Below, in pieces: positions 11,860-47,027 of a DNA stretch of 64,000 nucleotides (position 1 is its first letter; every line of letters starts with the position of its first letter). The notes under the pieces were generated by a model. It saw nothing but the letters and a program-made list of their open reading frames with translations. It was not told where the DNA came from and did not search any database. The translations under genes were made by a program, and so were the position numbers. Origin of the DNA: Candidatus Omnitrophota bacterium (GTDB lineage Bacteria; Omnitrophota; Omnitrophia; Omnitrophales; Aquincolibacteriaceae); assembly GCA_022711115.1 (NCBI GenBank), contig JAKLFP010000003.1, positions 201,199 to 265,198 of the forward strand. Direction: 5' to 3'.

Positions 11860-12147
11860 TCAGAATTTCGATTGAGCCACAACAAACATAACAGAGCTCA
11901 AAATTCCAAGCGCAGCGCCTAAAATCACTGTGTTGCGGACTTCACGCGGCTCATCGATCGGTGCGACTTGCCAATTAAACTGTTTCATGATCCACTGGTA
12001 TAAAGCTATGGATCGTTTTGGCCAAAAAATCGAAAGAACGCTAAGACCGATTCCCAAAAAACTGATCGCTAGGAAAATTATCTTAGGTGAAAAGCAACAG
12101 CACGCGAATTTACTGAGCGGACATTGCGTCATTTTGTTTCCTCCCAT
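11860..12147 (-). CDS. small hypothetical membrane protein
   Basis: Two hydrophobic segments are present. Coding is uncertain. Confidence 0.25.
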   Translation of the reverse strand: MGGNKMTQCPLSKFACCCFSPKIIFLAISFLGIGLSVLSIFWPKRSIALYQWIMKQFNWQVAPIDEPREVRNTVILGAALGILSSVMFVVAQSKF

Positions 12148-12163
12148 TCATGTTTCAAAATAA

Positions 12164-16303: not shown

Positions 16304-18034
16304 TCAAACCTTGGAATTGAATTTGGAAGCCAGCTTTGTTTTTTCAGGATCCACAGAAAGCACAAAAAAATAGAACCGATTCGTGAACATATCGGATTTT
16401 ATTTTCCGACTAAATCCTTCCATTGCTTCCGATTCGAATTTTTTTTCATAAACCACGTAAAGATCAGAACACGATGGCAACTTCAGCTTGTCATCCTTGA
16501 GAGCTTTTCCGTAGACCCAAAGACAATTTTCACACATGGCCCTCAGTGAGGGTACCGGATAGCGCGTAATGATCGCAAAGGTCCGAAAATCAGGGCTGTT
16601 TTTGCTTTGTATTTTTTGACGTAAAGCCGCAACCCGCTTCATAAACTGCATCTGAAAGGTCCTTTGATCAAAAAAAAGCTCGTCCACATCATAGGTCTCT
16701 AAAACATCCACAATTTCTTCTTCAATAATAGGATTTTTTCTCTCCTTAAGAAATTGGCCGTAATAAGCCAGAAAAAAAATAATCACCAGCATTCCCAATC
16801 CCATCCAAATCTGCCGCTGCCTGAAGGCTGATATTTCCTTGCCCGCAAAGCGTCCAAGAAGTCTCGATAGGCCTTCGATCCCCTCAGCCGTAGTCACCGC
16901 CAAAAAAGGCAGAAGGATCAGAGTGTGCCGGGAAGGTCCATAGGGCAAATTCTTGAGAGGGACCATCCCCCACCAGGTCAAGATCGCTAACCCGATAAAA
17001 AGCCCTAAAAAACGCGTCTTTTTTTCAGGACTCAAAACGAAATTCACAACCCCAAATAGGAAACTCACAAACAATCCTATTGCAAAAAACTTGAAAAGAG
17101 GATGTGTTTCGGGGAAAAAGCCCGTTTTGGCTTCAATGATCACGAAAAGATTATGAAAGTAGAACCAGAGAACATATTTTATCTGCGCCCAAAGTCCGGA
17201 CGGAAAATTTTTACCGGGCAACCCGTATTCTCCGGAAGCTCCCAAAGCCCATTGAGTCCCCTGATAAAAATCGTAAAAACGCTTCTCCAGAAAAAAGTGC
17301 CAAATCGGCCAAAGAAAGATGAGGCACAGGATACCGCTGAAAAGAAAATTTCGTAAGACGAGGGCCTTATTTTCCGAGTCGGGGAAATAAAACAAAAAAA
17401 GAGAAAGATAAAAGGCCGGAATGAACAGAAACATCTGATATTGCATGGAACATGTCACAGCGATCACAACACTTGTCACGCATGCACTTCGGAGATTGAA
17501 GGAGGGCGCATGATAATACAGGGCTAAAAGAAAAAAAAGAATGACGACCCCCAAAACTCCGATGGCATAGCTATGCATTTGCTTGGCGTACGCAATGTTA
17601 TCCCAGGAACACGCAACAAGAACAATCGCAAGAAAAGCCTTATGCCAGTTCTTTTTATCATAGACCCTGTAAAAAGCCCATAACATGACAAGGGCAAGAC
17701 ATCCTGCCACGCATGAAGGAAGTCTCCCCCAAAATAAAAACTCACGGTAATTCATGTCCGGTGACACCAGAAAATATGTGAAAAGATATTCAAAAGGGGC
17801 GTTGGTTAAAGCCCTTGAAAGATGGAGGGGATCCTGCATTTTTTTTCCATCAAGAACACCAAGCAAAATCCCCAGATCGTCGGTATTTGTGAAATACCCT
17901 TCCAGTTGATAGAAACGCGCAAAAAAACCGATGCTAAAGACAACGCTGAATAGCAGGACAATGCCTTTGTTCTTTCGTAACCTTTCAGCAAGTTTTAAAA
18001 AAAAGTCGCGCATAGGCCTCATCATCTCTGGCAC
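16304..18034 (-). CDS. polytopic membrane protein, putative GT-C fold glycosyltransferase
   Basis: The protein is 576 aa with more than 10 predicted TM segments and an aromatic-rich loop pattern. Confidence 0.4.
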   Translation of the reverse strand: MPEMMRPMRDFFLKLAERLRKNKGIVLLFSVVFSIGFFARFYQLEGYFTNTDDLGILLGVLDGKKMQDPLHLSRALTNAPFEYLFTYFLVSPDMNYREFLFWGRLPSCVAGCLALVMLWAFYRVYDKKNWHKAFLAIVLVACSWDNIAYAKQMHSYAIGVLGVVILFFLLALYYHAPSFNLRSACVTSVVIAVTCSMQYQMFLFIPAFYLSLFLFYFPDSENKALVLRNFLFSGILCLIFLWPIWHFFLEKRFYDFYQGTQWALGASGEYGLPGKNFPSGLWAQIKYVLWFYFHNLFVIIEAKTGFFPETHPLFKFFAIGLFVSFLFGVVNFVLSPEKKTRFLGLFIGLAILTWWGMVPLKNLPYGPSRHTLILLPFLAVTTAEGIEGLSRLLGRFAGKEISAFRQRQIWMGLGMLVIIFFLAYYGQFLKERKNPIIEEEIVDVLETYDVDELFFDQRTFQMQFMKRVAALRQKIQSKNSPDFRTFAIITRYPVPSLRAMCENCLWVYGKALKDDKLKLPSCSDLYVVYEKKFESEAMEGFSRKIKSDMFTNRFYFFVLSVDPEKTKLASKFNSKV

Positions 18035-26193: not shown

Positions 26194-26751
26194 TTAAAAC
26201 TGAATCTTGACGTCCTGGGTATCTTCTTTCGGGATTTCCAAGAGAGTACGACGCTGATAGCCGAGCGAATTGGCGACAAACACATCCGGCAGCTGCTGAA
26301 TCCTGATGTTGTAAACATTAACGCTTTCGTTGAAGAATTCACGCCGATCCGCAATTTCGTTTTCAAGACCGGAAATACGGCCTTGTAATTGTAAAAAATT
26401 CTGGTTCGCTTTCAGGTCCGGATAATTTTCCGAAACAGCAAAAAGCGTTTTGAGTCCGGCGGCAAGCTGGTTTTCGGCCTTGGTTTTGTCTTCGATAGAG
26501 GTCGCGTTCATAAAAGCCGTCCGTGCCTGCGTGAGCTTCTCCAAAAGACCTTGTTCATATTGCATGTAGCCTTTGCAGGTATCGATCAGCTTCGGCAATT
26601 CATCATGCCGCTGCTTCAAAAGTACGTCGATATTGGCCCACGCCTTGTCGATATTGTTCCGAACCTGAATTAATCCGTTGTAAATCCCCACAAAATAACC
26701 GACCAGACCCATCACCGCAAAAATCACCACCGCAAGAATCACGAGGCTCAT
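26194..26751 (-). CDS. LemA family protein
   Basis: An N-terminal TM helix is followed by the LemA signature (IYNGLIQVRNNIDKAWANIDVLLKQRHDELPKLI). Confidence 0.85.
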   Translation of the reverse strand: MSLVILAVVIFAVMGLVGYFVGIYNGLIQVRNNIDKAWANIDVLLKQRHDELPKLIDTCKGYMQYEQGLLEKLTQARTAFMNATSIEDKTKAENQLAAGLKTLFAVSENYPDLKANQNFLQLQGRISGLENEIADRREFFNESVNVYNIRIQQLPDVFVANSLGYQRRTLLEIPKEDTQDVKIQF

Positions 26752-26787
26752 AAGAATTCTCCTTTTTCAGAGGGACTTTTCCCTTTT

Positions 26788-27561
26788 TTAAAAAATACTC
26801 GGAAAATACTGTTTGATTAAAATAAAAAGGCACACCACCGTAAGGATGGGGCCTCCGTACAAAAAAAGATACAACTGCCAGGTCATCGAATCCAGCAATT
26901 CTTTTTCGCTCTTGTCCGAAAGACAAAAAAAAGAACCTTCTTTCTGGATGCAAATATTCTCGCTGCTTTTTTCGGAAAGTTCCACGAGAGGGTTTTTTGT
27001 CGCGGTCCCCATGACATAAAGGTTGTCGCCGGGACAAACATAATGTTCCGTACAGCGGAGCGGCTTGTCAAAACCCATAAACCCGCGCGGCGATATCCCC
27101 AACTCGATCAACCCTTGTTCAAAAGCGGCTTTATCCGGACCACGGCTTAACGACCCCATATTAAACTTCCGGTCGTCCTTCAGATAAAGTTCGGCGCCCA
27201 CGGGATTCACCAAGGTCTTGCCCGTTTCATCCTCCAAATAAAACCATTCGGGCGTGCAAAACTCCTTGAGGGTTACCCAGTGGCTGCTTTTGCCAGAACT
27301 CCGTTTTTCTTCGACCTTATAATGAAAAAAAACGCAATCTGTTTTGGAAAAGGGCGTCTTCATCGTGCCTTTAAACGGCTTGGCAGTCCCGTTGATTTCT
27401 ACAAGCCCCATCGCCATCGCACGGATGGTGGAGGTCGGAATGTTTTCGATCAGTTTTCGTTTGTTGCGGATTTTGAATCCTCGAAAAAAGCCGATCACAC
27501 CACAAACGATACCTGCGAGCAGCCAAAATAAAAGGTCATTGTCAGAATTTCTAGTACTCAT
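26788..27561 (-). CDS. membrane-anchored protein, possibly GIDE-domain (LemA-associated)
   Basis: There is an N-terminal TM helix and a C-terminal TM helix. The position next to LemA matches the common bacterial LemA/GIDE pairing. The domain call is from memory only. Confidence 0.4.
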   Translation of the reverse strand: MSTRNSDNDLLFWLLAGIVCGVIGFFRGFKIRNKRKLIENIPTSTIRAMAMGLVEINGTAKPFKGTMKTPFSKTDCVFFHYKVEEKRSSGKSSHWVTLKEFCTPEWFYLEDETGKTLVNPVGAELYLKDDRKFNMGSLSRGPDKAAFEQGLIELGISPRGFMGFDKPLRCTEHYVCPGDNLYVMGTATKNPLVELSEKSSENICIQKEGSFFCLSDKSEKELLDSMTWQLYLFLYGGPILTVVCLFILIKQYFPSIF

Positions 27562-28012: not shown

Positions 28013-29086
28013 ATGAAAGATATTGTCCCGACTCGATACTGGCAAAAAGTAAACGACACTCATATCCAGTGCACCCTTTGCCCGCGCCATTGTAAATTGG
28101 CGGAAGGCCAGCGCGGTTTTTGTTTTGTGCGCGCCTGCCAGAATGGCCAGATCGTGCTTACCACCTACGGCCGCTCCAGCGGTTTTTGTGTGGATCCCAT
28201 CGAAAAAAAGCCTCTTTATCATTTCCTGCCGGGAACACCAATCCTTTCGTTCGGCACTGCGGGCTGCAACCTCGGCTGCCAATTCTGCCAGAACTGGGAT
28301 ATCAGCAAAGCGAATGAAACCGATGTCCTCGCAGATACCGCATCACCGGAAAAAATCGCCATGACGGCAAAAAACTTGAAATGCCGCAGTGTGGCCTTCA
28401 CCTATAATGAACCGCATGTTTTTCATGAATACGCCATTGACTCGGCCAAGGAATGTCGCAAACTCGGGATTAGAACCGTAGCCGTCACGGCTGGTTATGT
28501 TTGCAAGGAACCACGCATTGAATTCTACGAATGGATAGATGCGGCGAACGTGGATTTGAAAGCCTTCACGGATGATTTCTACCAAAAATATACGGCCAGT
28601 CATCTTGCGCCTGTTCTGGAAACTTTGCTCTATATTAAAAAAGAAACCAAGGTGTGGCTGGAAATCACAACGCTTCTGATCCCATCCCTGAATGATTCCG
28701 AAAAAGAGATTCACGCCATGACAAACTGGATCCTGGAAAATCTCGGACCTGACGTCCCGCTTCATTTCACGGCATTTCATCCGGCCTGGAAAGTGGACTT
28801 CCCGCCTACTCCGCTTGCAACGCTTCAAAAAGCCCGCGCGATCGCCCTGAAGAACGGCCTCCGCTATGTCTACACCGGCAATGTCGACAATCCCGAAGGC
28901 GAAACGACTTATTGTCATGCCTGCAATAAAAAATTGATCGGCCGGGATGGATTTGAAATCACGGATTGGAATTTAAAAGAGAACGGCGCCTGCAAATCCT
29001 GCGGGACAATGGGTTCGGGCATTTTGGAACCCCAGCCAGGCACCTGGGGCTCGAAGCGATTGCCGGTCAGAATGAAGGAAGATTGA
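28013..29086 (+). CDS. amrS: AmmeMemoRadiSam system radical SAM enzyme
   Basis: The N-terminal CxxC is CTLCPRHC, the radical SAM CxxxCxxC is CNLGCQFCQNW, and the C-terminal Cys-rich region is CHACN...CKSCG. Confidence 0.85.
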   Translation: MKDIVPTRYWQKVNDTHIQCTLCPRHCKLAEGQRGFCFVRACQNGQIVLTTYGRSSGFCVDPIEKKPLYHFLPGTPILSFGTAGCNLGCQFCQNWDISKANETDVLADTASPEKIAMTAKNLKCRSVAFTYNEPHVFHEYAIDSAKECRKLGIRTVAVTAGYVCKEPRIEFYEWIDAANVDLKAFTDDFYQKYTASHLAPVLETLLYIKKETKVWLEITTLLIPSLNDSEKEIHAMTNWILENLGPDVPLHFTAFHPAWKVDFPPTPLATLQKARAIALKNGLRYVYTGNVDNPEGETTYCHACNKKLIGRDGFEITDWNLKENGACKSCGTMGSGILEPQPGTWGSKRLPVRMKED

Positions 29087-29090
29087 AACG

Positions 29091-32000
29091 CTATTCGTTG
29101 GCCAAATAAAATTTGATGGCTCGCTCGAGCAGATAATGCAAAAGCACATCTTTATAAGAAAGCGACTCGTGATAAAAAGGTTTGATACTGACATCTTCTT
29201 TTTTTAGAAGCCGGCTGCTTAGTCGAAAAAATCTGATAGAACCATCGCCGGCATTGGGAATACGTTTGACACTATTTTGGGAACGCACTTGCTTTCTTGG
29301 GTCACTCGTTTGCGCCAACACATCCTGCAGAGTATTTTGCTCAGAAGTGATTTCAGATTGTTTGGCTAACGGCTGACTTTCGGTTTGAGAACCGGCGATC
29401 ATGGTTGCCGCGAGTCCTATCACACCGGCGGGAACGGTGCGGTCATAATAGGAAAAATTGTCCTGAATCTGGCTCCAAGCAAAATTCAAAAGCCCATAGC
29501 CGATGCCCCAAGGGTTAAATAATGAAAAAATTTGAGTCACGGAATTGTAGTTGACCAACGCATAAGTATGACTAGGAACGACGCCGCTTCCGGAGACAGG
29601 ATTGCTTTTGGCCGTGAAGGTGAGGAGCGTATTCGGAGTGTTCCACGAATTCACGACCACGTTCCATTGGCTCGGATCCGGCAACCAGCCTGTTGTAACC
29701 GCATTTCCGGAAATAGCCTCGAGCGCATATGAGGAACTTCCCCATCCGATCGCGCGGTAACTATTCGAGTTTTTACCCCACTTTTCATGGATCTGGACAA
29801 ACGCCTTCTCGGCAAGAGCTGCCCATAATTCGGCATTATAATCGTAGGCAAAAGCACCGCGATTGGCGTATACAAAAACCCACGACGGTTCAACCGGCAC
29901 CTGACGATCCACGGTGACATAATCTGCAATACCCTCCTTAAAAAATCGTACGGTATAAGTTCCGTCACCGTTATCGATGAACATATCTGCGATGACATCC
30001 GGAGTCCGGCGAGCCGTTTCCGCAAGAGCGGCCAGAAAATAGCAGTCTGATGTAGCCCCCTGCACAATATCGGAATAACTGATCCCATTGACAAAAAGAC
30101 GTCCCACAGCAGCTCCACGATAGCTGCCGTCTTCCGCAACCGGACGGTCGAGTCCTAGAAACCATTTATTCACAAGCTTTTGAAGTTGCGCGGCCGAAGA
30201 TCCGGGCATTAAATTCCCCAAGGCCGTCTCCTGATAAACAGCATTAGCCTGGTTCCCAAGAATAACGGCATTCGCGAGGACATGAACATAATCAAGTTCT
30301 TTATAAAAAGCAGGACGATTTTGCATCTCCTGCAAGAGTGAAAATTCCACTGCCGAAACAAGACCTTCATCCTGAACCGCGTTTAAAATGGACAACAGAT
30401 CAGCCCGATTCAAAATGCCGTCGGATAAATCCGCCTGAATCAAAGAAGCCAAAGCAGTATCCGGACTCACGGTATAGTTGGACCCGTTTACTCTAAAATA
30501 AATCGTTTGGCCATTGAGTTGCGTGATTTGGATTCGGGTCATCAAGGCAAAGGTCTGTATATCGCTGGCCCAGGTACGGAACGTGTCCATGATCCCGTCA
30601 AAGAGCAGTTTTGCATTGATGGCCGTGCCGGTGCGATAATCGGCCGTTAGGGTCGTGAAATCGGGAACCGCATTCGGTGAAATATCAAAAGAAAGCTGAC
30701 TCAGCGTACCCATCAGAAAACCACTCCCCGTTACGGTAATTTGACATCTTGGAGGCACACTTCCGCTGATATAGGCCGCGCTCACTATTGTCCCAGCACT
30801 CAAGGCCGCTTGAAACTGAGCCACGTAATTTTTAACTTGAGGAGACGGTTGCTGCTCGAGATGAACGCCAGTAGCGTCACGATAGGCCTTGTAGTAGGAG
30901 TTCTCCAGTCTAAAGTATGTCGTTTGATCCTCATCTTTGCCCGTAATCATGAGCTGCATCATCGCGTAAAGTGTCTGAATATCGTTCAGTTTTGAGATCG
31001 GCGACATTTTCAAAGCCTGGAATAACATGCTCGCAGGAACTGTGATGTCAGCCGCCGAACCTTTATAGTTAGCCCGAATCGAACCTGCCACCAATTGACC
31101 GTTCGGCGAAAGATTGAAGAACAGATCCTTGAAGGAACCTTGCATGTTCGGCCAGGGGTCATAAACATGCACTTCATATTCAGGATTGGCGCAAAGAGAG
31201 CAAAAAGATATTTGTGTTTCATAGTTATATGTAAAGAGAGCTTGCAATTGAGTCACATAATTCTGAACCGCGGTTCTGAAGGCTTGATACGATTGATTTT
31301 GATAATTGAAATAAATCACACCGTTGACAATAGAAGTCACATTCAATTGCGTCAAGGCCACAAGGGATGCGACATCATTTTTAAGAAAAGGCGATTGATG
31401 GAATGTGAGAAAAAGCAGATTCGAATCGATGCCAGCAATACCCTGATAACTTACCTGAAGGGTCGGAATATCGAGCGTTCCATTCTGTTTAATTACAAAT
31501 TCCATCCGGTTCAAGGCACCGGTCGCTGCGGCAGCATTGGTCACAATGACTTTATAGCCGGAGGTCCTGTAAACGTAGTGAAACGTCAAACTTCCGATGC
31601 TGTTTTTAAACGAAGAGAGTGTGGCCACAACAGGTGCCGGAATATCCATATCGGTTGATTGTTTGATAAGATCAACAAGATAACTTGTCCGGACCGACAT
31701 CGGATCTGTCCACACAAGCCATGAAGGTGAAGATACGGAAGTAATGTTCGCTGTGATGCTGCCGCTGGCCGAATCAACAACGATCCGGGTGATCTGAGAT
31801 CTCCAATTCCCTCCCTGACAATTGATATCACTACAGGTGGTCCGCCAGATGGAAGAAAGAACATAACCTGCCGCATAATTAAATTGGGCCTGCGTACCGG
31901 TCTTCAAATCCACCACTTGTTTGATGTTGTATTGACCACCATAAGTCATTATGACGATCTTGCCCACATCCATCAAAACACCATTTCGGGTTTCAGATAT

Positions 32001-32354
32001 AAATGCATTGATCTCATTGGAGTTCTGGGGATTCACAGAGACTCGGATATTCAACGGCACGCCGTTTGTACCATAATATTTTTGCAAGGCCGGCATCACC
32101 TGTGATGTGAGATTATCCATGGGTGTTGCCACACTAAGCGGTCCAAAAGGCACAAGGCTTCCGGAGGGAATCGATGTCTGCGTTGAAGTTTGTGAAGAAG
32201 TAGAGTTCGTTTGCGTTCCTTCAAAAGTCTGTGTGGGCATACTTTGGGCAAGCGGGTCCTTCTGCGTAGTTGGGGCCAAAAGTGCAAACCCCGTCGGCAT
32301 TATTTGGGTACTCACTAACAGGAAAGCCATTAGAACTGCTAAAGATTTTTTCAT
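29091..32354 (-). CDS. large secreted protein with C-terminal calpain-like cysteine protease (peptidase C2) domain; N-terminal region paralogous to a segment of the adjacent 2462-aa protein
   Basis: The signal peptide is MKKSLAVLMAFLLVSTQIMPTGFA. The calpain triad context is QGATSDCYFLAALA (Cys codon 30042-30044), SHTYALV (His) and FNPWG (Asn codon 29514-29516). The protein is 1087 aa. Confidence 0.8.
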   Translation of the reverse strand: MKKSLAVLMAFLLVSTQIMPTGFALLAPTTQKDPLAQSMPTQTFEGTQTNSTSSQTSTQTSIPSGSLVPFGPLSVATPMDNLTSQVMPALQKYYGTNGVPLNIRVSVNPQNSNEINAFISETRNGVLMDVGKIVIMTYGGQYNIKQVVDLKTGTQAQFNYAAGYVLSSIWRTTCSDINCQGGNWRSQITRIVVDSASGSITANITSVSSPSWLVWTDPMSVRTSYLVDLIKQSTDMDIPAPVVATLSSFKNSIGSLTFHYVYRTSGYKVIVTNAAAATGALNRMEFVIKQNGTLDIPTLQVSYQGIAGIDSNLLFLTFHQSPFLKNDVASLVALTQLNVTSIVNGVIYFNYQNQSYQAFRTAVQNYVTQLQALFTYNYETQISFCSLCANPEYEVHVYDPWPNMQGSFKDLFFNLSPNGQLVAGSIRANYKGSAADITVPASMLFQALKMSPISKLNDIQTLYAMMQLMITGKDEDQTTYFRLENSYYKAYRDATGVHLEQQPSPQVKNYVAQFQAALSAGTIVSAAYISGSVPPRCQITVTGSGFLMGTLSQLSFDISPNAVPDFTTLTADYRTGTAINAKLLFDGIMDTFRTWASDIQTFALMTRIQITQLNGQTIYFRVNGSNYTVSPDTALASLIQADLSDGILNRADLLSILNAVQDEGLVSAVEFSLLQEMQNRPAFYKELDYVHVLANAVILGNQANAVYQETALGNLMPGSSAAQLQKLVNKWFLGLDRPVAEDGSYRGAAVGRLFVNGISYSDIVQGATSDCYFLAALAETARRTPDVIADMFIDNGDGTYTVRFFKEGIADYVTVDRQVPVEPSWVFVYANRGAFAYDYNAELWAALAEKAFVQIHEKWGKNSNSYRAIGWGSSSYALEAISGNAVTTGWLPDPSQWNVVVNSWNTPNTLLTFTAKSNPVSGSGVVPSHTYALVNYNSVTQIFSLFNPWGIGYGLLNFAWSQIQDNFSYYDRTVPAGVIGLAATMIAGSQTESQPLAKQSEITSEQNTLQDVLAQTSDPRKQVRSQNSVKRIPNAGDGSIRFFRLSSRLLKKEDVSIKPFYHESLSYKDVLLHYLLERAIKFYLANE
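31274..32093. repeat. paralogous segment (copy 1) shared between the two giant genes, about 80% DNA identity with 36507..37326
   Basis: The encoded peptide LQKYYGTNGVPLNIRVSVNPQNSNEINAFISE...GKIVIMTYGGQYNIKQVVDLKTGTQAQFNYAAGYVLSSIWRTTCSDINC is nearly identical to the copy in the 2462-aa gene. Antisense ORFs 31884..32105 and 37117..37302 mirror each other. Boundaries are approximate. Confidence 0.75.
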
Positions 32355-32682
32355 TCTAAAGCCTCCGATAAAATTTATAAATCTCGATCAAATTTCTCTA
32401 CATTAAAGAGTTTTATTTTGTGTTAAAAAAGTTAAAACCATTTTAACTTTCTTTCGCTAAAAGATAGCATTTCTCTCATTAATGTCAAAAATGCGTTTAT
32501 GGAAGATTCTTCTTGCTATGAATTGATTTTTGGTATTTTAAGGAGTAACTTTTACAAAATTCTAAGAGGAAATCTTTAAACCAAAACGTGGAATTGTGAA
32601 TCAAAATAATCCATTGGCAGGATGAAGGTCTTTGATTAAAAACACCTGGTTCATACAACTAATGTTTGTGTCGTGATCCTTT

Positions 32683-35600
32683 TCAGACTGTAGCAGAAAG
32701 CAACGACCCCATAAGAACCCACACACCATTTATAAGCTGATACCAATTACTGTTATAGTAGATCCATTGCCCTGCCGGTTCAGAAAAAGCCGTATAGGAA
32801 ATCCCGTTATATCTAAAAACGATATCAAAACCCTGAATATTCGCCCCAGACCGAGACCTTGTGTTGGAAGTGCTCGATAAGTATTCAAAACTTTTGGCCC
32901 GAAGTGATAACTGCATCATTAAAAATTGTTCCGCACTTTCCAGGGGCTGCATCACTTCCGCTTCTGCCTCAGCATAGGTATAAAATGTTCCGGTCCTCGG
33001 ATTTATCACATCCCGGATCGCACCCGTCACCAGTTTCGATGCCAACCCATGAAAGCTGCTATCCGGAATCCGGTCCACAAGCCACTGCTGTCGATTGATA
33101 TCATGCTTATTGAAATTTAAAAGCCGCATCCAGTTCGCTGTCACCTGGTGTGCCCGCCATTCCATATGCGCTGCATCATCAACGACATCGATCGAGTGTT
33201 TCATTTCATGTGCCAGGATCGGTAAGGCAAGACGAGCTGAGGCAGCGCCTTGCGTTCCGCTGAGCGCCGTTAAATCACAGTAAAAGATAAGCACTTTATC
33301 AACAGTCGCTTGGATTGCAACACCCATCCCTGAAAAAATCCAACTAGCACTCGCTGAAGCATAAAAAGGATGTTCCTGCAATTGTCTTAAGACCAGATGA
33401 TACGGACTGCGTAAATAAGTGAGAAACGTCGCACTGTCTGTCTGCATGCCCAAGGCAATCATTTGTCTCATGGCGTTTCTCGCTTGGGCGTTGATCCCCT
33501 CCGCCACGAAGGTTTCATAGGTCGTCGTGACAAAATAGCTGGCCGGTTGTATCGAGCGAAAACTATTTTGAATATTGGTATACAGTTCCCTCGAAAAATT
33601 CTGCCGGCTTAGCAGCACATCCACAAAAAGCTGTCCCGATGAGTTGTAATAATCTGTGGTGTCCCCGTTCGCGTAGGTCCGCTTCGAATAATCCGGTGTG
33701 GTGTTGGTGCCCGTATAGCAATACTGCTGGGTCCATGCTGGCGTGCCGTTTGCGGCATATTGTGTCCTGACACTTAATCTCCCGAAAACGTCATTTTGAA
33801 CAACCGAGATCTGGGAACCCGCCGGCGCGGCAACGTCCACATCCACCAGCTTAGTCTGGCCGTTCCAATGCAAGCTGATCCTCACAACCGACCCACCCGG
33901 CAGCTGGATGCTTTCATATCCGACAAACCGGAAATTCTGGATCCCGGTACCAAAAATTTGCGCCACAATCTGTGGATTACCTGAGAGAATGCTGAAGGCC
34001 GCAGCTGTTTTTTCCTGCCTCGCAATTATGTCAGGCGATGCTCCGAGAACTCTGACGGCTTGAAAGGTTGCGGCATAGGCGTTCGCTTCCGAAACAAGAA
34101 TCGCTACATTAGGGTCTGCCGCTACATCAACCGAATGGGTTGCTTCATGAGCCACTCTCGGCACTATCCAGTTTCTTCGAGTCATGGAGTCTTGAGGAAG
34201 CGCAAGAAAAGGCTCGAGGGGCATTACAACGATATCGTAAGCTTCCGACGACATTGCGAATTGACTCAAAGCTTCGGGAGTGAGATTGATCCCTTTTAAG
34301 AACAGCACGGGAAACGAAGCTCCTGCCGGGAGAATGTGATTAACCGGATCCGTCATAAAAGCATAGGCTTGCGCCACAAGGTCCAAGTTTTGAGCGGTTG
34401 CCTGCACAGATTCCAGGAACTGCGCGGCAGTGATCTGTGTAAGAGGATCCTCCTGCCGCAACCCCGCAAACAAAGCGTCATAAGGAAGATACGTGCCCTG
34501 CAGGTTCACGATCCATTGGCCATTGTAATAGATCAATCCGCCGGAGAGATCGGAAAAAATATTTTGAAAAATATTTTGATTGGTACCGCTGTAAGAAAAA
34601 ACCATGTCATACCCGTTGTTCATTATTCCAAAATGATCTCTGTTTGCAGACGAGCTTGAGATGAACTGCAAAGAATTCATGCCCATACTCGCCAAATAAA
34701 GAATGGCGCTAGATTGATAAGGCGGTAAAAATTGAGAAAAAACAACACTTCGCAACCGACGTTCATTCCATTCGGTATTGTAAGTCGCCATTGCATTCGC
34801 AAGATCTTGGCTGGCAGAATTCAATTGGGCCAAGAGCGCCTGGAGTTCTGCCTCGCTCTTATAATTCAAATCACCGATGATCATCATCTGTGGATTTCGA
34901 GCGCTAAGCCCTAACATCTGAGCTCTTTGCATTTCAATTGATTCGAAATTAACCACTTGATCAAATTGATTCTGCGCGAGGCATTTCCAGTTCCAAATCA
35001 TTTTTTTCAGAGTATTGTAGGTTAGCAGGGTGTCTGCCTGCATGGGCGGCTCGATCACTGTACCGAAAACCTGAACTTTTGCGGCAGCAAAAGTCGCCCC
35101 TATCGCATTGATTTCCTGACTGAAAACAGAAAAATCCTGCGCTCTTCGGGCATTAAATTCTGTGGATTGGGTTATAAGAGATTGGATGACAGACTGAACA
35201 TTGTTGATCAAGGACATTTGGATATTTACCGAATGCCATGACGAGTCAACAAAAACCCAAAAACTCGTATCGGAAATTGCATGAACAAAAACAGTCTTAT
35301 GCCCGCCTCCTGGAAGCTGGAAGGTAAGTTCGCGCCCTGTAAGAATGACTGAATCCTTTGTCATAGACGCAACACGACTCGACTCAAAGACCATTTTCGT
35401 AATGCCCGATGCAAGAAGATTCAGTTGCGCGGCCCAAACAAGCCGGATGGCTCTTTCCCGTGAAATACCGTTCGCGAAATAATAATTTTGGACCAGAGTT
35501 CCTTCCGTGGATCCATCACCGGCAACATCGATCATATATTTTTCTTCGTTGATGGAGACTTGCGGGCTACCTAACATCTCCATCCATCTTACGGTTTCCG

Positions 35601-38600
35601 CTCTCGCATATTTTTCCGACGCCACCATCGGAGAATTGCAAATGCCTTTAACCCCGCAGTAAACATGCGCCATTTCATGCGCCATAAAGCTAGCCATTCC
35701 TCCCTTGGTGTTATCATTAAGTAAGGGGACAGAACCCAAATCAAGCGTAACGGTTGCCGTGGCAGCGACGCCATATCCGCCGCCGACATGAGGGGAACTG
35801 GGATTCGTCAAAATAATGAAATGGCGAAGCGTACTTAAAAGCTGCCCGAACCTTGCCGCATCTCGGTTCATTGCATACGCTATGAGATCTGTTAGGAAAT
35901 TCCGTTCAGAAGTTGTAGGCGCATGCGCGATAAACTCAGCGTAAGTCATGTTGCCAAAACTTTCTCGAATATAAGGAAATGCATTTTTTGTATTATTAAA
36001 TTCGATTTCCGTCATGGTCGTCCGATCCAGAAGCGCATCGACAAAACGCTGGCCGGCAGAATTATAATAATCGATATCGCCATTCGCATAAGTCCGCTTG
36101 GAATAATCCGGCGTGATGTTCGCGCCGGTGTAGTAATACTGCTGCGTCCATAAAAGCGTCCGGTTATCATATTGAGTCATCAGAGCTAAACGACCGATGG
36201 AATCATATCGTTTGATCGTCGCCTGAGAACCACTGACAAGCCATTGATACCACACGCCGTTGTAATAGATCCATTGACCGGATAGATCTGAAAAAGCATT
36301 GTAGAGAGTACTGCCGCGTCTGAAGACGATATTGTAGCCCTGAACACTTGTCCCAAAGCGGGAGGCCGTCGTGGAAGTGCTTGAAATATATTCAAAGCTA
36401 TTGGGGGCAAAGCTGAACTGGGTCATAAGAAATTGCTCCGCGCTATCCAGCGGCACTGACGGAAGAAGATAAATCTGTGTGGACGGTGCCGGGGCTTTAA
36501 AAATCACATAGGAAAGAGTTTGATACACAAATTTGATAGAACCGCTGGAGCCCGCCTGAACGTTACTGATTCGTGGCAACATGGTCAGCGCAGCCACATC
36601 ACTAATGCCGGGTTGTAAAAGTTTCATGCCCTCGAATAACAATGAACCGTTTGGCGTTAGATTTGTTGTCGCGCCTTTATAAGTCAACTGAAGAGTCGTT
36701 AAGTCGATGGTTCCATTCCGCCTGACCACAAATTCCATCCGGCTTAAGCCACCGACAATCGCGGTTGGATTGGTGACAATAACTTTATAACCTCCGGTGA
36801 CATAGAAATAATGAAATGTCAAACTGCCGATATTGTTCTTAAATGAGGAGAGTGTGGCCGCAACAGGTACGGGAATGTCCATGTCTGTTGATTTTTTGAT
36901 AAGATCCGCAAAACTGGTGAAACTCACGGACGTTGCATCTGTCCATACAAGGAATGTAGGCGACGAAACTGAAGTAACAGTCGCAGTGCCACTGCTGGTC
37001 GAAGAATCAAGGGTGGTAACACTGATCTGTGATTTCCAATACCCTCCTCGACAATTGATATCACTGCAGGTCGTTCGCCAGATAGAAGAAAGGACATAGC
37101 CTGCCGCGTAATTGAATTGAGCCTGCGTGCCAGTCTTGAGATCCACAACGCGGCTGATGTTATACTGGCCACCATAGGTCATGATCACGATCTTCCCCAC
37201 ATCTTTCATGACGCCATTCTGGAGTTCGGATATAAATACATTGATCTCGTTAGAGTTTTGAGGATTCACAGAAACACGGATATTCGCCGGCAACCCGCTT
37301 AGCCCATAATATTTCTGCAACGTCTGCATCAAGGGCGTTTCATCCTGATACGTCACAATCGTACCATTGCGATAGATCTTATAAAACTTCCCCTGCCACC
37401 CAAGATGAATAGCTCCTGTCGGTTCCACGCTGTAAATCGTACTTTGAGTGAGGCGGATAAGTGCATCTCGATCCGCAGTAATGGCTGGAGTTAAAAGTTT
37501 GATCGCGGAAAACAATAATTGCTGATCCAAAGATGTGATATCCTGATAGCTGATACTTTGGATGGCGTCCAGACTTCCATTGGCAAGCAGTGAAAAAGAT
37601 GCGGATACAAAGGTCCCTCTCGGATGAGTGTTGTTATTGATAATCTCGGTAAGAAGTTTGCCAGCACCCGTGTCATAACGCAAACTGACCTTCAAACCAC
37701 TAGGAAGCATGGATTGTAACGTGATGGCATTCTGTAAACTGTAAGCAGCTGTTTGAAGGATTTTGTTTGTTTTTGCATTGGTATGCCAAACAATTGCCGC
37801 ATCCATGCTTTGAGCAATCGAAGTCAATTGCTGTTGGGTTTGGAGAAGTTCAGTTCGCGTGGCAAAATAAACATTGGTCATAAACTGTGCGGCCTGCTGC
37901 AACACGTAACCATCAAGGCCCAATTCATTGGCTCGCTGGACCTCGGCGATGCTGAATTCGACCACGCTGTCATATGCATTAGTCAGCATCTTTTTCCCGT
38001 TCCACAAAATCTTCAGAATTGTGGTAAACGATAGAAGAAGATCGGGATCCGTCGGCGGAGTAACAATAGTCCCGTTAATTGTTAATACAGCACTTGCAAA
38101 TGTGGAGCCCGACACATCGATCGGTCCGAAAAGAGCGGTAAAAGTTTGATTTAAAAGGGTCGTGATCGTATTGGCTTTTGTTGCGAGCTGTTGCTGCAAG
38201 GCTTCGATCGAGGTTATTAATTCGAAATTATTATAAAAATCATGCCAGGTGCCGTCAAAGAGTGAAATAGTTTCATTGGAAGTACCAGGATTGATGATAT
38301 TCGAAACAAAAATGGTAGCGGTCTGAAATTCAACCGTATGACCAGTAACCGTGCCAGAACCACGTGTCATAGATCCCGCGGTCACCGAGACCAGTTGCGG
38401 GACTACTTTGGAATCGCTCGTCTGCTGCGCTACTTGGTAGATTCTGGCAATTTCTTCGGGCGAGCGCATGAAGAGCGCGCTTTCATTAAAAACAACCTGC
38501 CTTCCGGAATAAAATGTCTCAGCAAAAAGCGGCCCTGTGATAACTTCTTGCCAATGAGATCCGTTCAAATAAATTTGGCTATTCCAGGGATCGATCCACC

Positions 38601-40071
38601 AATATCTTCCGAAAGCAGGTCGATCGCCGCCCATCCAATAACGCATGTTATCTAGTGGTATCTCGCCGAAATTATAATAAACCCGAGAACTTACTGTTGA
38701 TGTGCCCGGAATTAAAAAAGTTTGATAAGCATAACCGGAGAGATTGCTTTGACCATACTCGGGAATAAAATGATACGAATCATTGCCTCCGAAGATTTCC
38801 GCCCAGCCAGCATGTTCTTTGATCCAATTGATGGCGTTGATTTCTCGCCACTCCGTATATTGCTCATTATGCCCAAAGCCTGCTTGCCCGAATTCGCCGG
38901 GAACATCGAGAGGATCAATCCCATAAAGAGAATCTGTCTCGCCGCCAATAGCATGATATCCTTCATGAAGAATGATCCCTATCACACCGGAACGACCAGC
39001 GCCCAAAGTTTGATCCGGTTTAAACATACGAGCCCCTAAGGAGATTTGCGCGCTTGCCCAACCCATGCTGGAATACCAAAACCTTGTAGAACCACAAACA
39101 GGCCTGACGTAATCGGCGCTTATCACGTGAACAGTCTGTTTAAATTTATTCCAGAAATCAGCTGCAAAATGCCTGAGAGATGTTAATACATCCAATATGA
39201 CTTGAGTGGTGCTGGCTAAGAAACCACTGATATACCCGAAAATCATGGATCGGTAATGTTCCGTCCATTCTGCATACCATTCGTCTCGAGTGATATCACG
39301 CTCCGCCTGACTGTACATTAGATTTGGCTCATTGGGCTGACTAAGCGTTCCATCGCCAGGAGATAGGTCATACGCTTCTCCTGCACTTTGATCGAAAATC
39401 GCACTGCCCTGTTCATCCCGATAAACCATGTAGCGTTGATTATTTTGTTCGTAATAAATAACTCCTTTTTCATTGACTGTTTCAATTTTGATTTCAGTAA
39501 GCTTACTTAGCGCATTTTGAACATTGATATCATTTTGCGTTGATTCGCTCATTCCCTTAAAAATCAGATCGCCGTCGACATTCTCCACACCGGAATAAAC
39601 AGTTTCTTTGACTTCGCTGAATGTTCCGTCTGCTTTTAAACTAACCTTCATGAATTTGAATTTGCCATTTCCTTGAACATCTGAAAGGTTGTGAACTACA
39701 ACAAAATACTCATTCGCTTCCGGATCGTACCGGGTTTCAATGGAATAGCTTTTCCCAAGGTTCTTTTGAAGCTGATCCACCAAAGCCTTCGCGGTAACAG
39801 GTAATTCAGGTTGAAGTTTATCTTCCGGCATTGCGGGTGAAATCGGACTCGGCTCTTGAAGGCTTCCGGAGGGAAGTTCCGGTGCAGATTTATCCGGCAA
39901 CACGGTACTGGATAGGGCATCTACAGTTTTAGTTTGCTGGCTTCTTGGATCTGAAAGTGTAATGGGTTCATCCGCATAGACCGGAGACAGAGGGGTGACG
40001 GAAAAAAAGCACATCAAAATACTCAGGTATAAAGATATCCCCTTAGTGCACAGCCTCATGTTAAATTTCAC
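32683..40071 (-). CDS. giant secreted multi-module protein (2462 aa) with four HExxH zincin-like motifs, YD-repeat-like segments and a triplicated beta-rich module
   Basis: The signal peptide ends ...PLSPVYA. A Pro-rich linker follows. The HExxH motifs are HEGYH (codons about 38953-38967), HEMAH, HEATH and HEMKH. The YD-like segments are YDSIGRLALMTQYDNRTL...PDYSKRTYANGD and a second copy. The three copies of the SFEY..SSTS..QG..IVF..AFS..GQWIYYN module are detailed in the findings. Confidence 0.8.
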   Translation of the reverse strand: MKFNMRLCTKGISLYLSILMCFFSVTPLSPVYADEPITLSDPRSQQTKTVDALSSTVLPDKSAPELPSGSLQEPSPISPAMPEDKLQPELPVTAKALVDQLQKNLGKSYSIETRYDPEANEYFVVVHNLSDVQGNGKFKFMKVSLKADGTFSEVKETVYSGVENVDGDLIFKGMSESTQNDINVQNALSKLTEIKIETVNEKGVIYYEQNNQRYMVYRDEQGSAIFDQSAGEAYDLSPGDGTLSQPNEPNLMYSQAERDITRDEWYAEWTEHYRSMIFGYISGFLASTTQVILDVLTSLRHFAADFWNKFKQTVHVISADYVRPVCGSTRFWYSSMGWASAQISLGARMFKPDQTLGAGRSGVIGIILHEGYHAIGGETDSLYGIDPLDVPGEFGQAGFGHNEQYTEWREINAINWIKEHAGWAEIFGGNDSYHFIPEYGQSNLSGYAYQTFLIPGTSTVSSRVYYNFGEIPLDNMRYWMGGDRPAFGRYWWIDPWNSQIYLNGSHWQEVITGPLFAETFYSGRQVVFNESALFMRSPEEIARIYQVAQQTSDSKVVPQLVSVTAGSMTRGSGTVTGHTVEFQTATIFVSNIINPGTSNETISLFDGTWHDFYNNFELITSIEALQQQLATKANTITTLLNQTFTALFGPIDVSGSTFASAVLTINGTIVTPPTDPDLLLSFTTILKILWNGKKMLTNAYDSVVEFSIAEVQRANELGLDGYVLQQAAQFMTNVYFATRTELLQTQQQLTSIAQSMDAAIVWHTNAKTNKILQTAAYSLQNAITLQSMLPSGLKVSLRYDTGAGKLLTEIINNNTHPRGTFVSASFSLLANGSLDAIQSISYQDITSLDQQLLFSAIKLLTPAITADRDALIRLTQSTIYSVEPTGAIHLGWQGKFYKIYRNGTIVTYQDETPLMQTLQKYYGLSGLPANIRVSVNPQNSNEINVFISELQNGVMKDVGKIVIMTYGGQYNISRVVDLKTGTQAQFNYAAGYVLSSIWRTTCSDINCRGGYWKSQISVTTLDSSTSSGTATVTSVSSPTFLVWTDATSVSFTSFADLIKKSTDMDIPVPVAATLSSFKNNIGSLTFHYFYVTGGYKVIVTNPTAIVGGLSRMEFVVRRNGTIDLTTLQLTYKGATTNLTPNGSLLFEGMKLLQPGISDVAALTMLPRISNVQAGSSGSIKFVYQTLSYVIFKAPAPSTQIYLLPSVPLDSAEQFLMTQFSFAPNSFEYISSTSTTASRFGTSVQGYNIVFRRGSTLYNAFSDLSGQWIYYNGVWYQWLVSGSQATIKRYDSIGRLALMTQYDNRTLLWTQQYYYTGANITPDYSKRTYANGDIDYYNSAGQRFVDALLDRTTMTEIEFNNTKNAFPYIRESFGNMTYAEFIAHAPTTSERNFLTDLIAYAMNRDAARFGQLLSTLRHFIILTNPSSPHVGGGYGVAATATVTLDLGSVPLLNDNTKGGMASFMAHEMAHVYCGVKGICNSPMVASEKYARAETVRWMEMLGSPQVSINEEKYMIDVAGDGSTEGTLVQNYYFANGISRERAIRLVWAAQLNLLASGITKMVFESSRVASMTKDSVILTGRELTFQLPGGGHKTVFVHAISDTSFWVFVDSSWHSVNIQMSLINNVQSVIQSLITQSTEFNARRAQDFSVFSQEINAIGATFAAAKVQVFGTVIEPPMQADTLLTYNTLKKMIWNWKCLAQNQFDQVVNFESIEMQRAQMLGLSARNPQMMIIGDLNYKSEAELQALLAQLNSASQDLANAMATYNTEWNERRLRSVVFSQFLPPYQSSAILYLASMGMNSLQFISSSSANRDHFGIMNNGYDMVFSYSGTNQNIFQNIFSDLSGGLIYYNGQWIVNLQGTYLPYDALFAGLRQEDPLTQITAAQFLESVQATAQNLDLVAQAYAFMTDPVNHILPAGASFPVLFLKGINLTPEALSQFAMSSEAYDIVVMPLEPFLALPQDSMTRRNWIVPRVAHEATHSVDVAADPNVAILVSEANAYAATFQAVRVLGASPDIIARQEKTAAAFSILSGNPQIVAQIFGTGIQNFRFVGYESIQLPGGSVVRISLHWNGQTKLVDVDVAAPAGSQISVVQNDVFGRLSVRTQYAANGTPAWTQQYCYTGTNTTPDYSKRTYANGDTTDYYNSSGQLFVDVLLSRQNFSRELYTNIQNSFRSIQPASYFVTTTYETFVAEGINAQARNAMRQMIALGMQTDSATFLTYLRSPYHLVLRQLQEHPFYASASASWIFSGMGVAIQATVDKVLIFYCDLTALSGTQGAASARLALPILAHEMKHSIDVVDDAAHMEWRAHQVTANWMRLLNFNKHDINRQQWLVDRIPDSSFHGLASKLVTGAIRDVINPRTGTFYTYAEAEAEVMQPLESAEQFLMMQLSLRAKSFEYLSSTSNTRSRSGANIQGFDIVFRYNGISYTAFSEPAGQWIYYNSNWYQLINGVWVLMGSLLSATV
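36507..37326. repeat. paralogous segment (copy 2) inside the 2462-aa gene, homologous to 31274..32093
   Basis: See copy 1. The coordinates were derived from the 5233-bp offset between mirrored antisense ORFs and are approximate. Confidence 0.75.
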
Positions 40072-45288: not shown

Positions 45289-45843
45289 ATGTTAAAACGA
45301 CTAGGGAAAAAGCATCGCGGCTTTACGATCATTGAACTTGTTCTTGTGGCGTTTTTATCATCGTTCATCATCCTTGGCTCTTTCGCAGCCTTCACCGTCG
45401 GCAATGAACAAGCCCAACTGAGCCAAACTAAAATGACTCTTGAAAGTTCTGCGCGGGACGCACTTTATAAAATGGCGCAGGAGATACGCCAGTCGGCGCC
45501 GAGCAGGATCACGATTGCTGCTGGCGGAGCCAGCATCCTGTTTGCGGTACCCGATCCGGCCAATCTCATCACAGCAACTTACGGCGTTAATTGGGCGGGT
45601 TGTCACATGATTCGTTATGCTCTCGGAGGCGTTAATAACCGACAACTCATCCGAACGGATGTATCGGCAAATCAATCATCCGTTATCGCAAACGATATCA
45701 CAGCCCTTCAGTTTGCAATGGGTGTTTCTCAAATTCGCGTTATTTCTATAACACTCTCGACCCAACGGACGCTGATCAGCGGACGTCCGGTCCCGGACAC
45801 TCCCCTGCAGCTGACGGCACAAGTGGAGGTACGCAACACATGA
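45289..45843 (+). CDS. prepilin-type N-terminal domain protein (minor pilin-like)
   Basis: The motif is RGFTIIELVLVAFLSSFIILG. The start was chosen at MLKRLGKK, internal to ORF 45220..45843. Confidence 0.65.
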   Translation: MLKRLGKKHRGFTIIELVLVAFLSSFIILGSFAAFTVGNEQAQLSQTKMTLESSARDALYKMAQEIRQSAPSRITIAAGGASILFAVPDPANLITATYGVNWAGCHMIRYALGGVNNRQLIRTDVSANQSSVIANDITALQFAMGVSQIRVISITLSTQRTLISGRPVPDTPLQLTAQVEVRNT

Positions 45844-47027
45844 AAAAATTTCCAAGAGCAAGAGCTCAACGAGGGTTTATTCTTGTTTCTGTTTATCTGG
45901 TCATTACAGGTCTTTCGATCGCGTCGGTGGCCTATTTCGCCAGAAGCAACGCCTTTCTGCAATCTGCCGAACGTGACCGAAACAGACTGATTGCTTTTAA
46001 TATGGCTGAAACGGCCGTCGATGTTGCTCTCACTCAGCTGAACATGAATAAAAGCTACACGGGAACCAACGGCTATGTTCCGTTTGACACGACTTCGGTG
46101 CCCGGAGGTTATTCGGTGGTAGTCACCACGCCCAACGGCAACCCGAGTATCCGAGTGATTCAAGCTTCAGGATTTGCTCCGGATAATACTGCAACATCCC
46201 GTGCCGCCCAAAGCGCAAACATTATCGCGTATGCCGAGATCCAGCCAAATCCTCTTTTTAATTTTGCGGTCTTTGCAAAAGATTCCATCAGCTTGACCAG
46301 CAGCGGCAGTGTTGCAAGCGTGGATAGTTACAACTCAACCAATGGCGCCTACAATCCTGCTACTGCCGGGAGTAATGGGCACATCGCTGCAAATTCCATT
46401 ACCCTCGACACGATTTCCCTTTCTGGAAATACTTTGGTTAAAGGAGACGCCTTTGTCGGTCCTGGAGGGGATCCTGACATGGGAATTAAGATTGGTCCGA
46501 ATTCGAGCATCACAGGCACCAAATCGGTATTACCCGCACCCATTGTTTATCAGCCTATCACTACAACGCTTCCGGTTTCCGGTGCAATCAGCATCAGCGG
46601 AAATACTGTGCAAAATCTGCTTCCGGGCACTTATCATTTTTCGTCTATCAGTATTACCGGACAGGCTTTGCTCAATATTACGGGGGCCGTAAAGATTTAC
46701 GTGGACGGTCCAGTGGACATCAGCGGACAAGGCATTGCCACCGCGGGCAATCTTCCGACTAATTTTCTTCTTTATGCCAGTGGAACCGACACGGTAAAAA
46801 TTAACGGCCAAGGAAACCTTTATGCAGGCATCTATGCCCCCAATGCGGTGGTAGAAAACGTTGGAAACGCCGCCTTTCTCGGCGCGGCAATCGCCAGTGA
46901 TTACAAACAGACCGGCAATAGCACCATCCACTTTGATGAAGCGCTCATGACGGTACAGAACGATGAGTTCGCTAAGATGAAAGTCAAGTCATGGCAGGAA
47001 TTGAACAGCTTGACTTGGGGGACTTAA
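45840..47027 (+). CDS. PilX-like N-terminal domain protein with Gly/Asn/Thr-rich beta-helix-like repeats (putative pilus tip/adhesin), paralog 1
   Basis: The N-terminal segment is QRGFILVSVYLVITGLSIASVAYF. The repetitive segment is G-N-T...I-x-G. The last 11 aa are identical to paralog 2. Confidence 0.5.
   Translation: MKKFPRARAQRGFILVSVYLVITGLSIASVAYFARSNAFLQSAERDRNRLIAFNMAETAVDVALTQLNMNKSYTGTNGYVPFDTTSVPGGYSVVVTTPNGNPSIRVIQASGFAPDNTATSRAAQSANIIAYAEIQPNPLFNFAVFAKDSISLTSSGSVASVDSYNSTNGAYNPATAGSNGHIAANSITLDTISLSGNTLVKGDAFVGPGGDPDMGIKIGPNSSITGTKSVLPAPIVYQPITTTLPVSGAISISGNTVQNLLPGTYHFSSISITGQALLNITGAVKIYVDGPVDISGQGIATAGNLPTNFLLYASGTDTVKINGQGNLYAGIYAPNAVVENVGNAAFLGAAIASDYKQTGNSTIHFDEALMTVQNDEFAKMKVKSWQELNSLTWGT

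Follow-up and report, generated by a model that had tools for sequence, protein, structure and literature searches.

What is a calpain-type protease doing at the end of a repeat-rich, apparently exported protein in an Omnitrophota genome, and is it likely to be active? The question arises from a 64,000-nucleotide (nt) stretch of DNA from a Candidatus Omnitrophota bacterium (GenBank assembly GCA_022711115.1, contig JAKLFP010000003.1, positions 201,199 to 265,198 of the forward strand), which we call the window and whose numbering we use throughout; the phylum has no isolates, and its members are believed to live on other cells or to prey on them. A complete gene at 29091..32354, on the minus strand like all of its features described below, encodes a protein of 1087 amino acids (aa) in the list of open reading frames (ORFs), with its stop codon at 29091-29093, and an earlier reading of the sequence (the original prediction) had placed a bacterial calpain-like catalytic core at the C-terminus of this protein. 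By sequence profile and predicted fold, the gene product is a calpain-family (peptidase C2, clan CA) core at the end of a repeat-rich protein that bears a predicted signal peptide. We think it probable that this core is a catalytically competent bacterial member of family C2 and forms the C-terminal 'warhead' of a multidomain Omnitrophota protein exported by Sec.

The calpain-type core, its active site and its relatives

The catalytic core (aa 752-985, 29400..30101) comprises subdomain PC1 and a shortened PC2. It matches the Pfam profile Peptidase_C2 (PF00648) at E 2.1e-20 and 73.4 bits (gathering cutoff 23.8), with aa 752-962 covering profile positions 39-253 of 297. A phmmer search with the protein against PDB sequences returned calpains only (top match 1kfu_L, E 1.4e-7), as did a 61-sequence family profile (E 2.3e-19). 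We built an AlphaFold2 model of aa 620-1087 on an alignment of 61 relatives, which reached a mean predicted local distance difference test score (pLDDT) of 82 and exceeded 90 over approximately aa 640-985. When this model was compared with the PDB using Foldseek, the top 40 matches were all calpain protease cores (best E 6.6e-15, target template-modelling (TM) score 0.60-0.66), aligned over about 285 columns with a root-mean-square deviation of 3.5-4 Å and 17-20% identity; the next group, primitive phytochelatin synthases, followed at E ~1e-3. The predicted structure has the two-subdomain, papain-like fold of the calpain type, so that the assignment to peptidase C2 holds by profile, by predicted fold and by the residues described next.

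The segment QGATSDCYFLAALA, which starts at aa 765, contains both the oxyanion-hole glutamine Gln765 (codon 30060..30062), which aligns with the Q of calpain QGxxGDC, and the catalytic nucleophile Cys771 (30042..30044), which aligns with m-calpain Cys105. The general base His929 (29568..29570) lies within SHTYALV, and Asn947 (29514..29516), which orients the catalytic histidine, lies within FNPWG together with Trp949 (29508-29510). Cys771 and His929 are 158 residues apart, His929 and Asn947 are 18 apart, and 140 residues follow Asn947; the motifs, order, spacing and codon positions given in the original prediction proved correct throughout. Gln765, Cys771, His929, Asn947, Pro948, Trp949 and Gly950 are invariant among 61 relatives, corresponding to Q146, C152, H310, N328, P329, W330 and G331 of family alignment A2, and the order Cys, His, Asn with a Gln ahead of the Cys is the one that family C2 requires. 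Judging from these residues, the core is most likely catalytically competent and apparently an active thiol endopeptidase.

The calcium sites of the core are only partly retained. In calpain-2, site 1 is formed by I89, G91, D96 and E175, and site 2 by E292, D299, Q319 and E323 (Rawlings 2015, PMC4631099). Residue positions were transferred manually through the HMMER alignment with human m-calpain (1kfu_L), which showed that Val755, Gly757, Asp762 (30069..30071) and Glu842 (29829..29831) correspond to Ile89, Gly91, Asp96 and Glu175 of m-calpain (calpain-2), respectively, with Asp762 and Glu842 invariant in the 61 relatives (D143 and E223 of A2). Site 2 is absent: Ile/Gly/Tyr and Gln stand where calpain-2 has Glu292 and Asp299, respectively, and the stretch bearing Gln319 and Glu323 is missing; the domain ends before that stretch, consistent with the shortened Pfam match. 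The protein therefore has one of the two core Ca2+ sites that define a classical calpain, and the calpain-III/C2L and penta-EF-hand domains that would follow a classical core are missing. Pfam detected no EF-hand, C2 or calpain-III domain in the whole protein at E<=1, nor in the tail at E<=10, bearing out the earlier statement that EF-hand and C2-like domains are lacking. Because site 1 is conserved, the missing EF-hands do not make the enzyme calcium-independent, and site 1 alone is also present in some other bacterial homologues, including cyanobacterial ones (Rawlings 2015, PMC4631099).

Ahead of the core lies a conserved, mostly helical pre-domain (aa 633-751, 30102..30458; pLDDT 89-98), which in the family alignment lies upstream of the Pfam C2 match across the whole bacterial clade, with conserved columns starting at about aa 632. 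Within its NKWFLGLDRP segment, K, W, G, D and P are invariant at aa 730-738 in alignments A1 and A2. We considered whether its loop-helix motifs (DGxI/VDxxD/E) could represent an EF-hand or a dockerin and rejected this as unproven, as Pfam returned nothing but noise for the pre-domain at E<=10; the dockerin matches of relatives are separate modules, situated nearer the N-terminus than the pre-domain.

The original prediction also placed about 140 aa after the core. While 140 residues do follow Asn947, the confident model fold extends to about aa 985, so the true extra tail is closer to 100 aa (aa 986-1087, 29094..29399), predicted to be disordered over aa 988-1065 (pLDDT 30-50) and then helical over aa 1067-1086. 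Pfam found no match to the tail at E<=10. The median number of residues after NPWG among 255 relatives is 25, compared with 137 in the 1087-aa protein. Near the end of the tail lies the conserved motif FYHESLSY (aa 1060-1067, 29154-29177); its general form, [FY]x[DES]E[PS]LS[YF], occurs about 25-45 aa from the C-terminus not only here but also in an Omnitrophota protein on L006 (tail at ~4150-4461), in P0156/P0272, in P0128 and in P0007. All motif-bearing proteins with complete N-termini (P0007, P0272, the L006 protein and the 1087-aa protein) have signal-like N-termini; those of the truncated P0128 and of P0156, which is P0272 in a shorter form, could not be judged. Proteins with this E(P/S)LSY tail define a subclade in which the C2 core and tail are preceded by variable N-terminal modules and a signal peptide.

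The family around this core is large. An exhaustive HMMER search with aa 680-1087 retrieved 6326 cluster representatives at E<=1e-3, a number that may include eukaryotic calpains, and 601 at E<=1e-30; the best 150 matches all have E<=1e-51 and 37-55% identity over aa ~688-975, and more than 1000 proteins match at E<=1e-10. The annotated relatives are from Planctomycetota (Lacipirellulaceae, Pirellulales) and filamentous cyanobacteria (Calothrix, Scytonema, Fischerella), many of them already named C2 or calpain proteases, and hundreds of planctomycete and cyanobacterial proteins are 45-55% identical to the core; for the pre-domain and core together (aa ~632-975), identity is 45-53%. Two clade-specific peptide patterns, applied to GTDB species representatives, gave 362 loci, with the best one in a second Omnitrophota metagenome-assembled genome. 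Relatives carry extracellular-type modules, including Planc_extracel (14/61), PPC (11/61), dockerin (4/61), RTX (3/61) and FN3. Tandem bacterial calpain domains also exist, with six matched stretches in the 6902-aa protein P0042 and several in P0008 and P0010. The 1087-aa protein shares the features that mark the bacterial C2 clade, namely the NKWFLGLDRP pre-domain, a core at or near the C-terminus and Ca2+ site 1 only. The calpain core is rare as a fraction of species, yet the family is well populated and recognized by automatic annotation, so the earlier description of such enzymes as rare and poorly characterised was half right on the first count; the second stands, with no bacterial calpain among the PDB matches. 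Bacterial calpains have already been treated in the literature (Rawlings 2015, PMC4631099; cyanobacterial calpains, PMC9380684), in which we found no mention of Omnitrophota together with calpain.

An identical sequence is deposited as HOW59220.1, under the name 'C2 family cysteine protease [Candidatus Omnitrophota bacterium]'. As several independent assemblies contain this protein, on contigs of 117-462 kb, we rejected an assembly chimera of the two paralogues. The family assignment is thus already known, and what is unusual is confined to the lineage-specific scaffold and the swappable locus. The less ordinary traits of the protein are its predicted Sec signal peptide, its uncharacterised repeat scaffold, its conserved tail motif and the evidence for payload exchange at one locus, the last three of which we regard as moderately interesting.

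Predicted export signal and N-terminal scaffold

The gene has a strong ribosome-binding site: reading the sequence, we found a Shine-Dalgarno GGAGG at 32362..32366, 7 nt 5′ of the ATG at 32354 and within a 328-bp AT-rich intergenic region, which favours the 1087-aa start over the 1079-aa start of some records. No intrinsic terminator was found around the gene. The first 24 residues (32283..32354), MKK followed by SLAVLMAFLLVST and QIMPTGFA, form a predicted Sec signal peptide, in which two basic residues precede a 13-residue hydrophobic core (Kyte-Doolittle value 2.83 over 11 aa) and cleavage would occur after GFA. This segment is the sole hydrophobic window of the protein in a hydrophobicity scan. 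The signal peptide of this protein was called by eye together with a crude hydrophobicity rule, which was also applied to relatives. The N-terminus of the related protein P0002 has an equivalent hydrophobic segment ending in MGFA, and the closest subclade relatives P0007, P0272, P0162 and the L006 protein also have signal-like N-termini. The Sec signal proposed originally is thus borne out as a set of signal-peptide features at the N-terminus, MKK, a hydrophobic core and GFA, that predict export.

Between the signal and the pre-domain lie a linker and four modules. The linker (aa 25-85, 32100..32282) is rich in Ser, Thr, Gln and Pro in the translation and has no family match. Module A (aa 86-239, 31638..32099) contains an invariant CSDxxC pair (Cys174/Cys179). 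It is followed by three repeats, R1 (aa 240-360, 31275..31637), R2 (aa 362-493, 30876..31271) and R3 (aa 505-632, 30459..30842), whose pairwise local-alignment z-scores are 15-18 relative to shuffles and which a repeat hidden Markov model detects with a domain E of ~1e-46. The R unit is about 125 aa long and predicted to be alpha-beta4-alpha2-beta3 (a helix, four strands, two helices, three strands).

This scaffold appears to be specific to the lineage. Module A and R1 together (aa 86-360) are 63% identical over 279 aa to aa 914-1192 of a neighbouring giant protein described below (E 1e-103), so the shared module noted in the original prediction is real. Identities to P0002 and P0003 are 58-64%, those to their N-terminal regions being 58-59%. 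There are three copies of the R repeat in the giant and one each in P0002, P0003 and the Omnitrophota protein of L006; in the last of these, an equivalent R repeat lies immediately ahead of the C2 cassette. The fetched planctomycete and cyanobacterial loci contain no R repeat, and all sequences in which the searches made here found module A or the R repeats are of Omnitrophota type. An alignment scan for module A and R1 found nothing in GTDB species genomes and one short partial locus, L001, in metagenomes. A word-index homology search returned 3 matches for the full protein and none for aa 80-639, although that search missed even the protein itself. An AlphaFold2 model of aa 80-640, based on 5 alignment rows, had a pLDDT of 71.7 and a predicted TM score of 0.46, with module A partly poorly modelled.

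An apparently variable gene slot and its interpretation

Upstream of the calpain gene, on the same strand, lies a paralogous giant gene (32683..40071, minus strand) recognised from the ORF list and its shared modules. Its 2462-aa product has a signal-like N-terminus and three R repeats, and the combination of module A with R occurs in it once (aa 914-1192, window 36496-37332). It also contains four HExxH motifs, at aa 369, 1465, 1975 and 2288, which lie within repeated modules that are likewise found in P0002 and P0003; in an alignment of 7 such modules HExxH is invariant and most have a Glu ~20 aa downstream. Pfam gave sub-threshold matches only (Peptidase_M91 E 0.04, SprT-like E 0.16) and NCBIfam none, phmmer against the PDB returned nothing for the giant, and a profile of the 7 HExxH modules returned nothing significant. 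The 'metalloprotease-like' description of this protein therefore has only its HExxH motifs and the sub-threshold Pfam matches behind it: membership of a metalloprotease family could not be established, the support consisting of HExxH and the downstream Glu, and we describe the modules as a putative uncharacterised minimal-zincin family.

In the window, the gene order is Na/H exchanger, DSP-type phosphatase, DUF748/AsmA, CYTH, giant and calpain gene, followed by a convergent radical-SAM gene (28013-29086) whose end lies 5 nt from the calpain stop codon; DUF4186, GIDE, LemA, Na/Ala symporter and permease genes lie beyond it. On contig L002, whose flanking genes are 70-89% identical to those of the window (tblastx), the slot convergent with the radical-SAM gene is instead occupied by P0002, and DUF4186, the Na/Ala symporter and a xanthine/uracil permease follow. 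Over aa 1-365, which hold the signal peptide, module A and R1, P0002 has 52% identity to the 1087-aa protein; beyond that it consists of HExxH modules and lacks a C2 domain. P0003 occupies the slot of the giant on contig L004, after genes for the Na/H exchanger, a protein tyrosine phosphatase (PTPase), DUF748 and CYTH. On L006, the C-terminus of a 1484-aa protein is 40% identical (E 2e-115) to aa 468-1080, spanning R3, pre-domain, core and tail, whereas its N-terminal repeats differ from those of the 1087-aa protein. The GC content at third codon positions (GC3) is 0.47-0.49 in the giant and calpain genes and 0.565-0.58 in the flanking transporter, radical-SAM and helicase genes. From these comparisons, the best-supported reading of the locus is that the gene slot is variable among related genomes.

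Several other observations concern these neighbourhoods. A LemA and GIDE-like pair (26194-27561, minus strand) lies between DUF4186 and the Na/Ala symporter in the window and is absent from L002, where a DPBB_1 gene follows the symporter. An ORF6N-like gene is directly downstream of P0003 (L004 8670-8900), and immediately after the calpain gene of L006 is a gene for a 595-aa protein (L006 4513-6300) that by eye resembles a large serine recombinase. Elsewhere in the window, two tandem paralogues of ~395 aa (45840-47027 and 47032-48222, plus strand) match DUF7305 and pAdhesive_15 (putative ice-binding-like adhesive) and may be surface adhesins; an 819-aa fusion (1439-3898, plus strand) joins a pyridine nucleotide-disulphide oxidoreductase to rhodanese, TusA and DsrE-like domains of sulfur-transfer type; and three consecutive ORFs of 301, 309 and 225 aa (10980-13767, minus strand) as well as a 576-aa ORF (16304-18034, minus strand) have no Pfam match at E<=1e-5.

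Under the reading that we prefer, Sec export and signal-peptidase cleavage would deliver a thiol endopeptidase that works outside the cytoplasm, with environmental Ca2+ at site 1 stabilising or activating the core rather than serving as a signalling switch. The parts shared with the giant, namely module A and the R repeats, would bring both enzymes to one target or surface, plausibly the envelope proteins of another cell or an extracellular protein used as a nutrient, given that the phylum is thought to be host-dependent or predatory. At the variable slot, one signal peptide and N-terminal module would then be combined with different catalytic payloads in related genomes. We infer the export, the calcium role of site 1, the targeting and the extracellular or prey-directed role from the protein architecture, from the precedent of the Tpr protease discussed below and from proposals made for Omnitrophota, where peptidase domains in giant proteins have been suggested to act in predation and C39 and S8 domains to mediate proteolytic maturation of the giants (bioRxiv 10.1101/2023.11.21.568195). 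A more ambitious version, which we put forward tentatively and think more likely wrong than right, is that Omnitrophota with a host-dependent or predatory life carry, from CYTH to radical-SAM, a hypervariable 'protease arsenal'. In it a lineage-specific, structurally novel scaffold of signal peptide, module A and R repeats would target interchangeable warheads, either a calpain whose tail bears E(P/S)LSY or minimal HExxH zincins, to the surface of prey or host, with the warheads being exchanged by recombination between paralogues and genomes.

Several points weigh against the preferred reading. Activity and localisation are predicted from sequence, and the signal peptide was judged by eye and a crude rule instead of a trained predictor; the crude test is passed by 13/201 relatives, and most cyanobacterial and Planctomycetota ones fail it. 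Sec export ends at the periplasm, and neither an outer-membrane secretion route nor a sorting signal was identified. A binding role for the scaffold is suggested by architecture alone, because neither module A nor the R repeats have a Pfam match and the model of aa 80-640 gave only noise against the PDB in Foldseek (beta-propellers, DPP4; TM ~0.1, probability <0.35). The tail could be inhibitory. The payload swap, finally, is deduced from synteny and not from complete genomes, since P0002 and P0003 sit on short contigs from different samples.

Three other explanations account for some of the same observations, and each is less well supported than an exported, active C2 endopeptidase. The protein could be an effector resembling polymorphic toxins, in which a conserved N-terminal delivery region carries interchangeable C-terminal toxins, calpain or zincin, against competing bacteria or host cells. 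In its favour are one syntenic slot with a conserved N-terminus and differing C-termini, the lower GC3 of the variable genes relative to their flanks (0.47-0.49 vs 0.565-0.58), the mobile-element-type genes (ORF6N-like, serine recombinase) that adjoin related genes in other genomes, and the known occurrence of C2 domains in toxin-type architectures with WXG100, Tox-PL or YwqJ-deaminase domains (Rawlings 2015). The locus, however, leaves no room for an immunity gene, as the calpain stop codon at 29091 abuts the convergent radical-SAM end at 29086; Pfam and NCBIfam searches of aa 1-750 found no trafficking, pre-toxin, Rhs or type V, VI or VII secretion system (T5SS, T6SS, T7SS) domains, with a weak RHS_repeat in L006 only; the conserved 100-aa tail keeps the protease from the extreme C-terminus; and the swapped region consists of very large, multi-module segments rather than a compact toxin tip. 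We accordingly judge a toxin-like effector unlikely.

We regard as improbable the idea that the calpain is a processing protease for the giant, with the shared module A and R repeats co-assembling and the C2 domain cleaving functional units from a 2462-aa multi-HExxH precursor. The genes are neighbours on one strand, a module of 63% identity is common to both, and maturation by C39 and S8 domains has been proposed for Omnitrophota giants, but the giant-type proteins P0002 and P0003 have no calpain gene on their recovered contigs, the C2 cassettes of L006 and P0156 have no giant-type neighbour, and the 328-bp AT-rich intergenic region contains a promoter-like site (a consensus match only), which suggests separate transcription of the two genes. 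Slightly less credible still is a role in quality control, as a periplasmic or housekeeping protease, or in binding without catalysis on a retained calpain fold, even though Sec export by itself takes the protein to the periplasm and non-peptidase calpain homologues exist in eukaryotes (PMC4631099). The catalytic residues, oxyanion Gln and NPWG Trp are all present and invariant in the 61 relatives, and all bacterial homologues but one are predicted to be peptidases (Rawlings 2015), both of which speak against a non-catalytic role; the absence of the calpain gene from the same slot in a close relative argues against a housekeeping one, and some 600 aa of repeats and Ser/Thr-rich linker are, in our own estimation, more typical of surface or extracellular proteins.

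Comparison with known systems

Bacterial calpains are almost unstudied, and the 1087-aa protein offers a well-defined and, as far as its residues tell, apparently active example from Omnitrophota. As only Ca2+ site 1 is kept and the end of PC2 is missing, a structure and enzymology of this clade would show what a minimal ancestral calpain core requires for activity. In addition, the locus is a concrete, testable example of apparent domain swapping on a scaffold that is shared and predicted to be secreted. Current views are not overturned by any of this, automatic annotation having already assigned the family.

Like polymorphic toxin systems (Zhang, Aravind et al. 2012), the locus combines alternative C-terminal enzymatic domains with a conserved N-terminus at one position, but it differs from them in that an immunity gene alongside and a recognised trafficking or pre-toxin domain are both lacking, and in a payload that is not at the extreme C-terminus. 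The classical calpains of eukaryotes (PC1-PC2 of CAPN1/2/3/9; 1kfu, 1zcm, 6bkj, 2p0r) resemble the core in predicted fold, in the layout and spacing of QGxxxDC...H...NPWG and in site 1; they also have Ca2+ site 2, a calpain-III/C2L domain, a penta-EF-hand domain and a small subunit, none of which is seen here, and they are cytosolic, whereas the 1087-aa protein is predicted to be exported.

To our knowledge, Tpr of Porphyromonas gingivalis is the sole homologue of calpain from bacteria to have been studied biochemically. Tpr is a protein of ~55 kDa without a long N-terminal repeat scaffold or tail motif, and its host is a Bacteroidota pathogen rather than an ultra-small environmental bacterium. 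Likened by description only, it too belongs to family C2 of clan CA and has neither calpain-III nor EF-hand domains, and it is reported to be a secreted or surface-associated, calcium-regulated C2 protease (PMC4631099; Staniec 2015 via bioRxiv 10.1101/2025.09.05.674453).

The closest known system is the planctomycete and cyanobacterial C2 clade, which includes the PPC~pC2 type represented by Alr0369 of Nostoc (Rawlings 2015) and has the same catalytic and Ca2+ site 1 residues. In these proteins as well, variable modules occupy the N-terminal part and the protease domain comes last or nearly last, and a shortened PC2 is common to all, the Pfam match stopping at around profile position 245-259 of 297. 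The Omnitrophota protein stands apart from this clade in its module A and R repeats, which are unrelated to PPC, Planc_extracel, dockerin, RTX and FN3, and from most of its members in what the crude test identifies as a classical Sec signal peptide and in the ~100-aa E(P/S)LSY tail that extends beyond the point, ~25 aa after NPWG, at which most of those relatives end.

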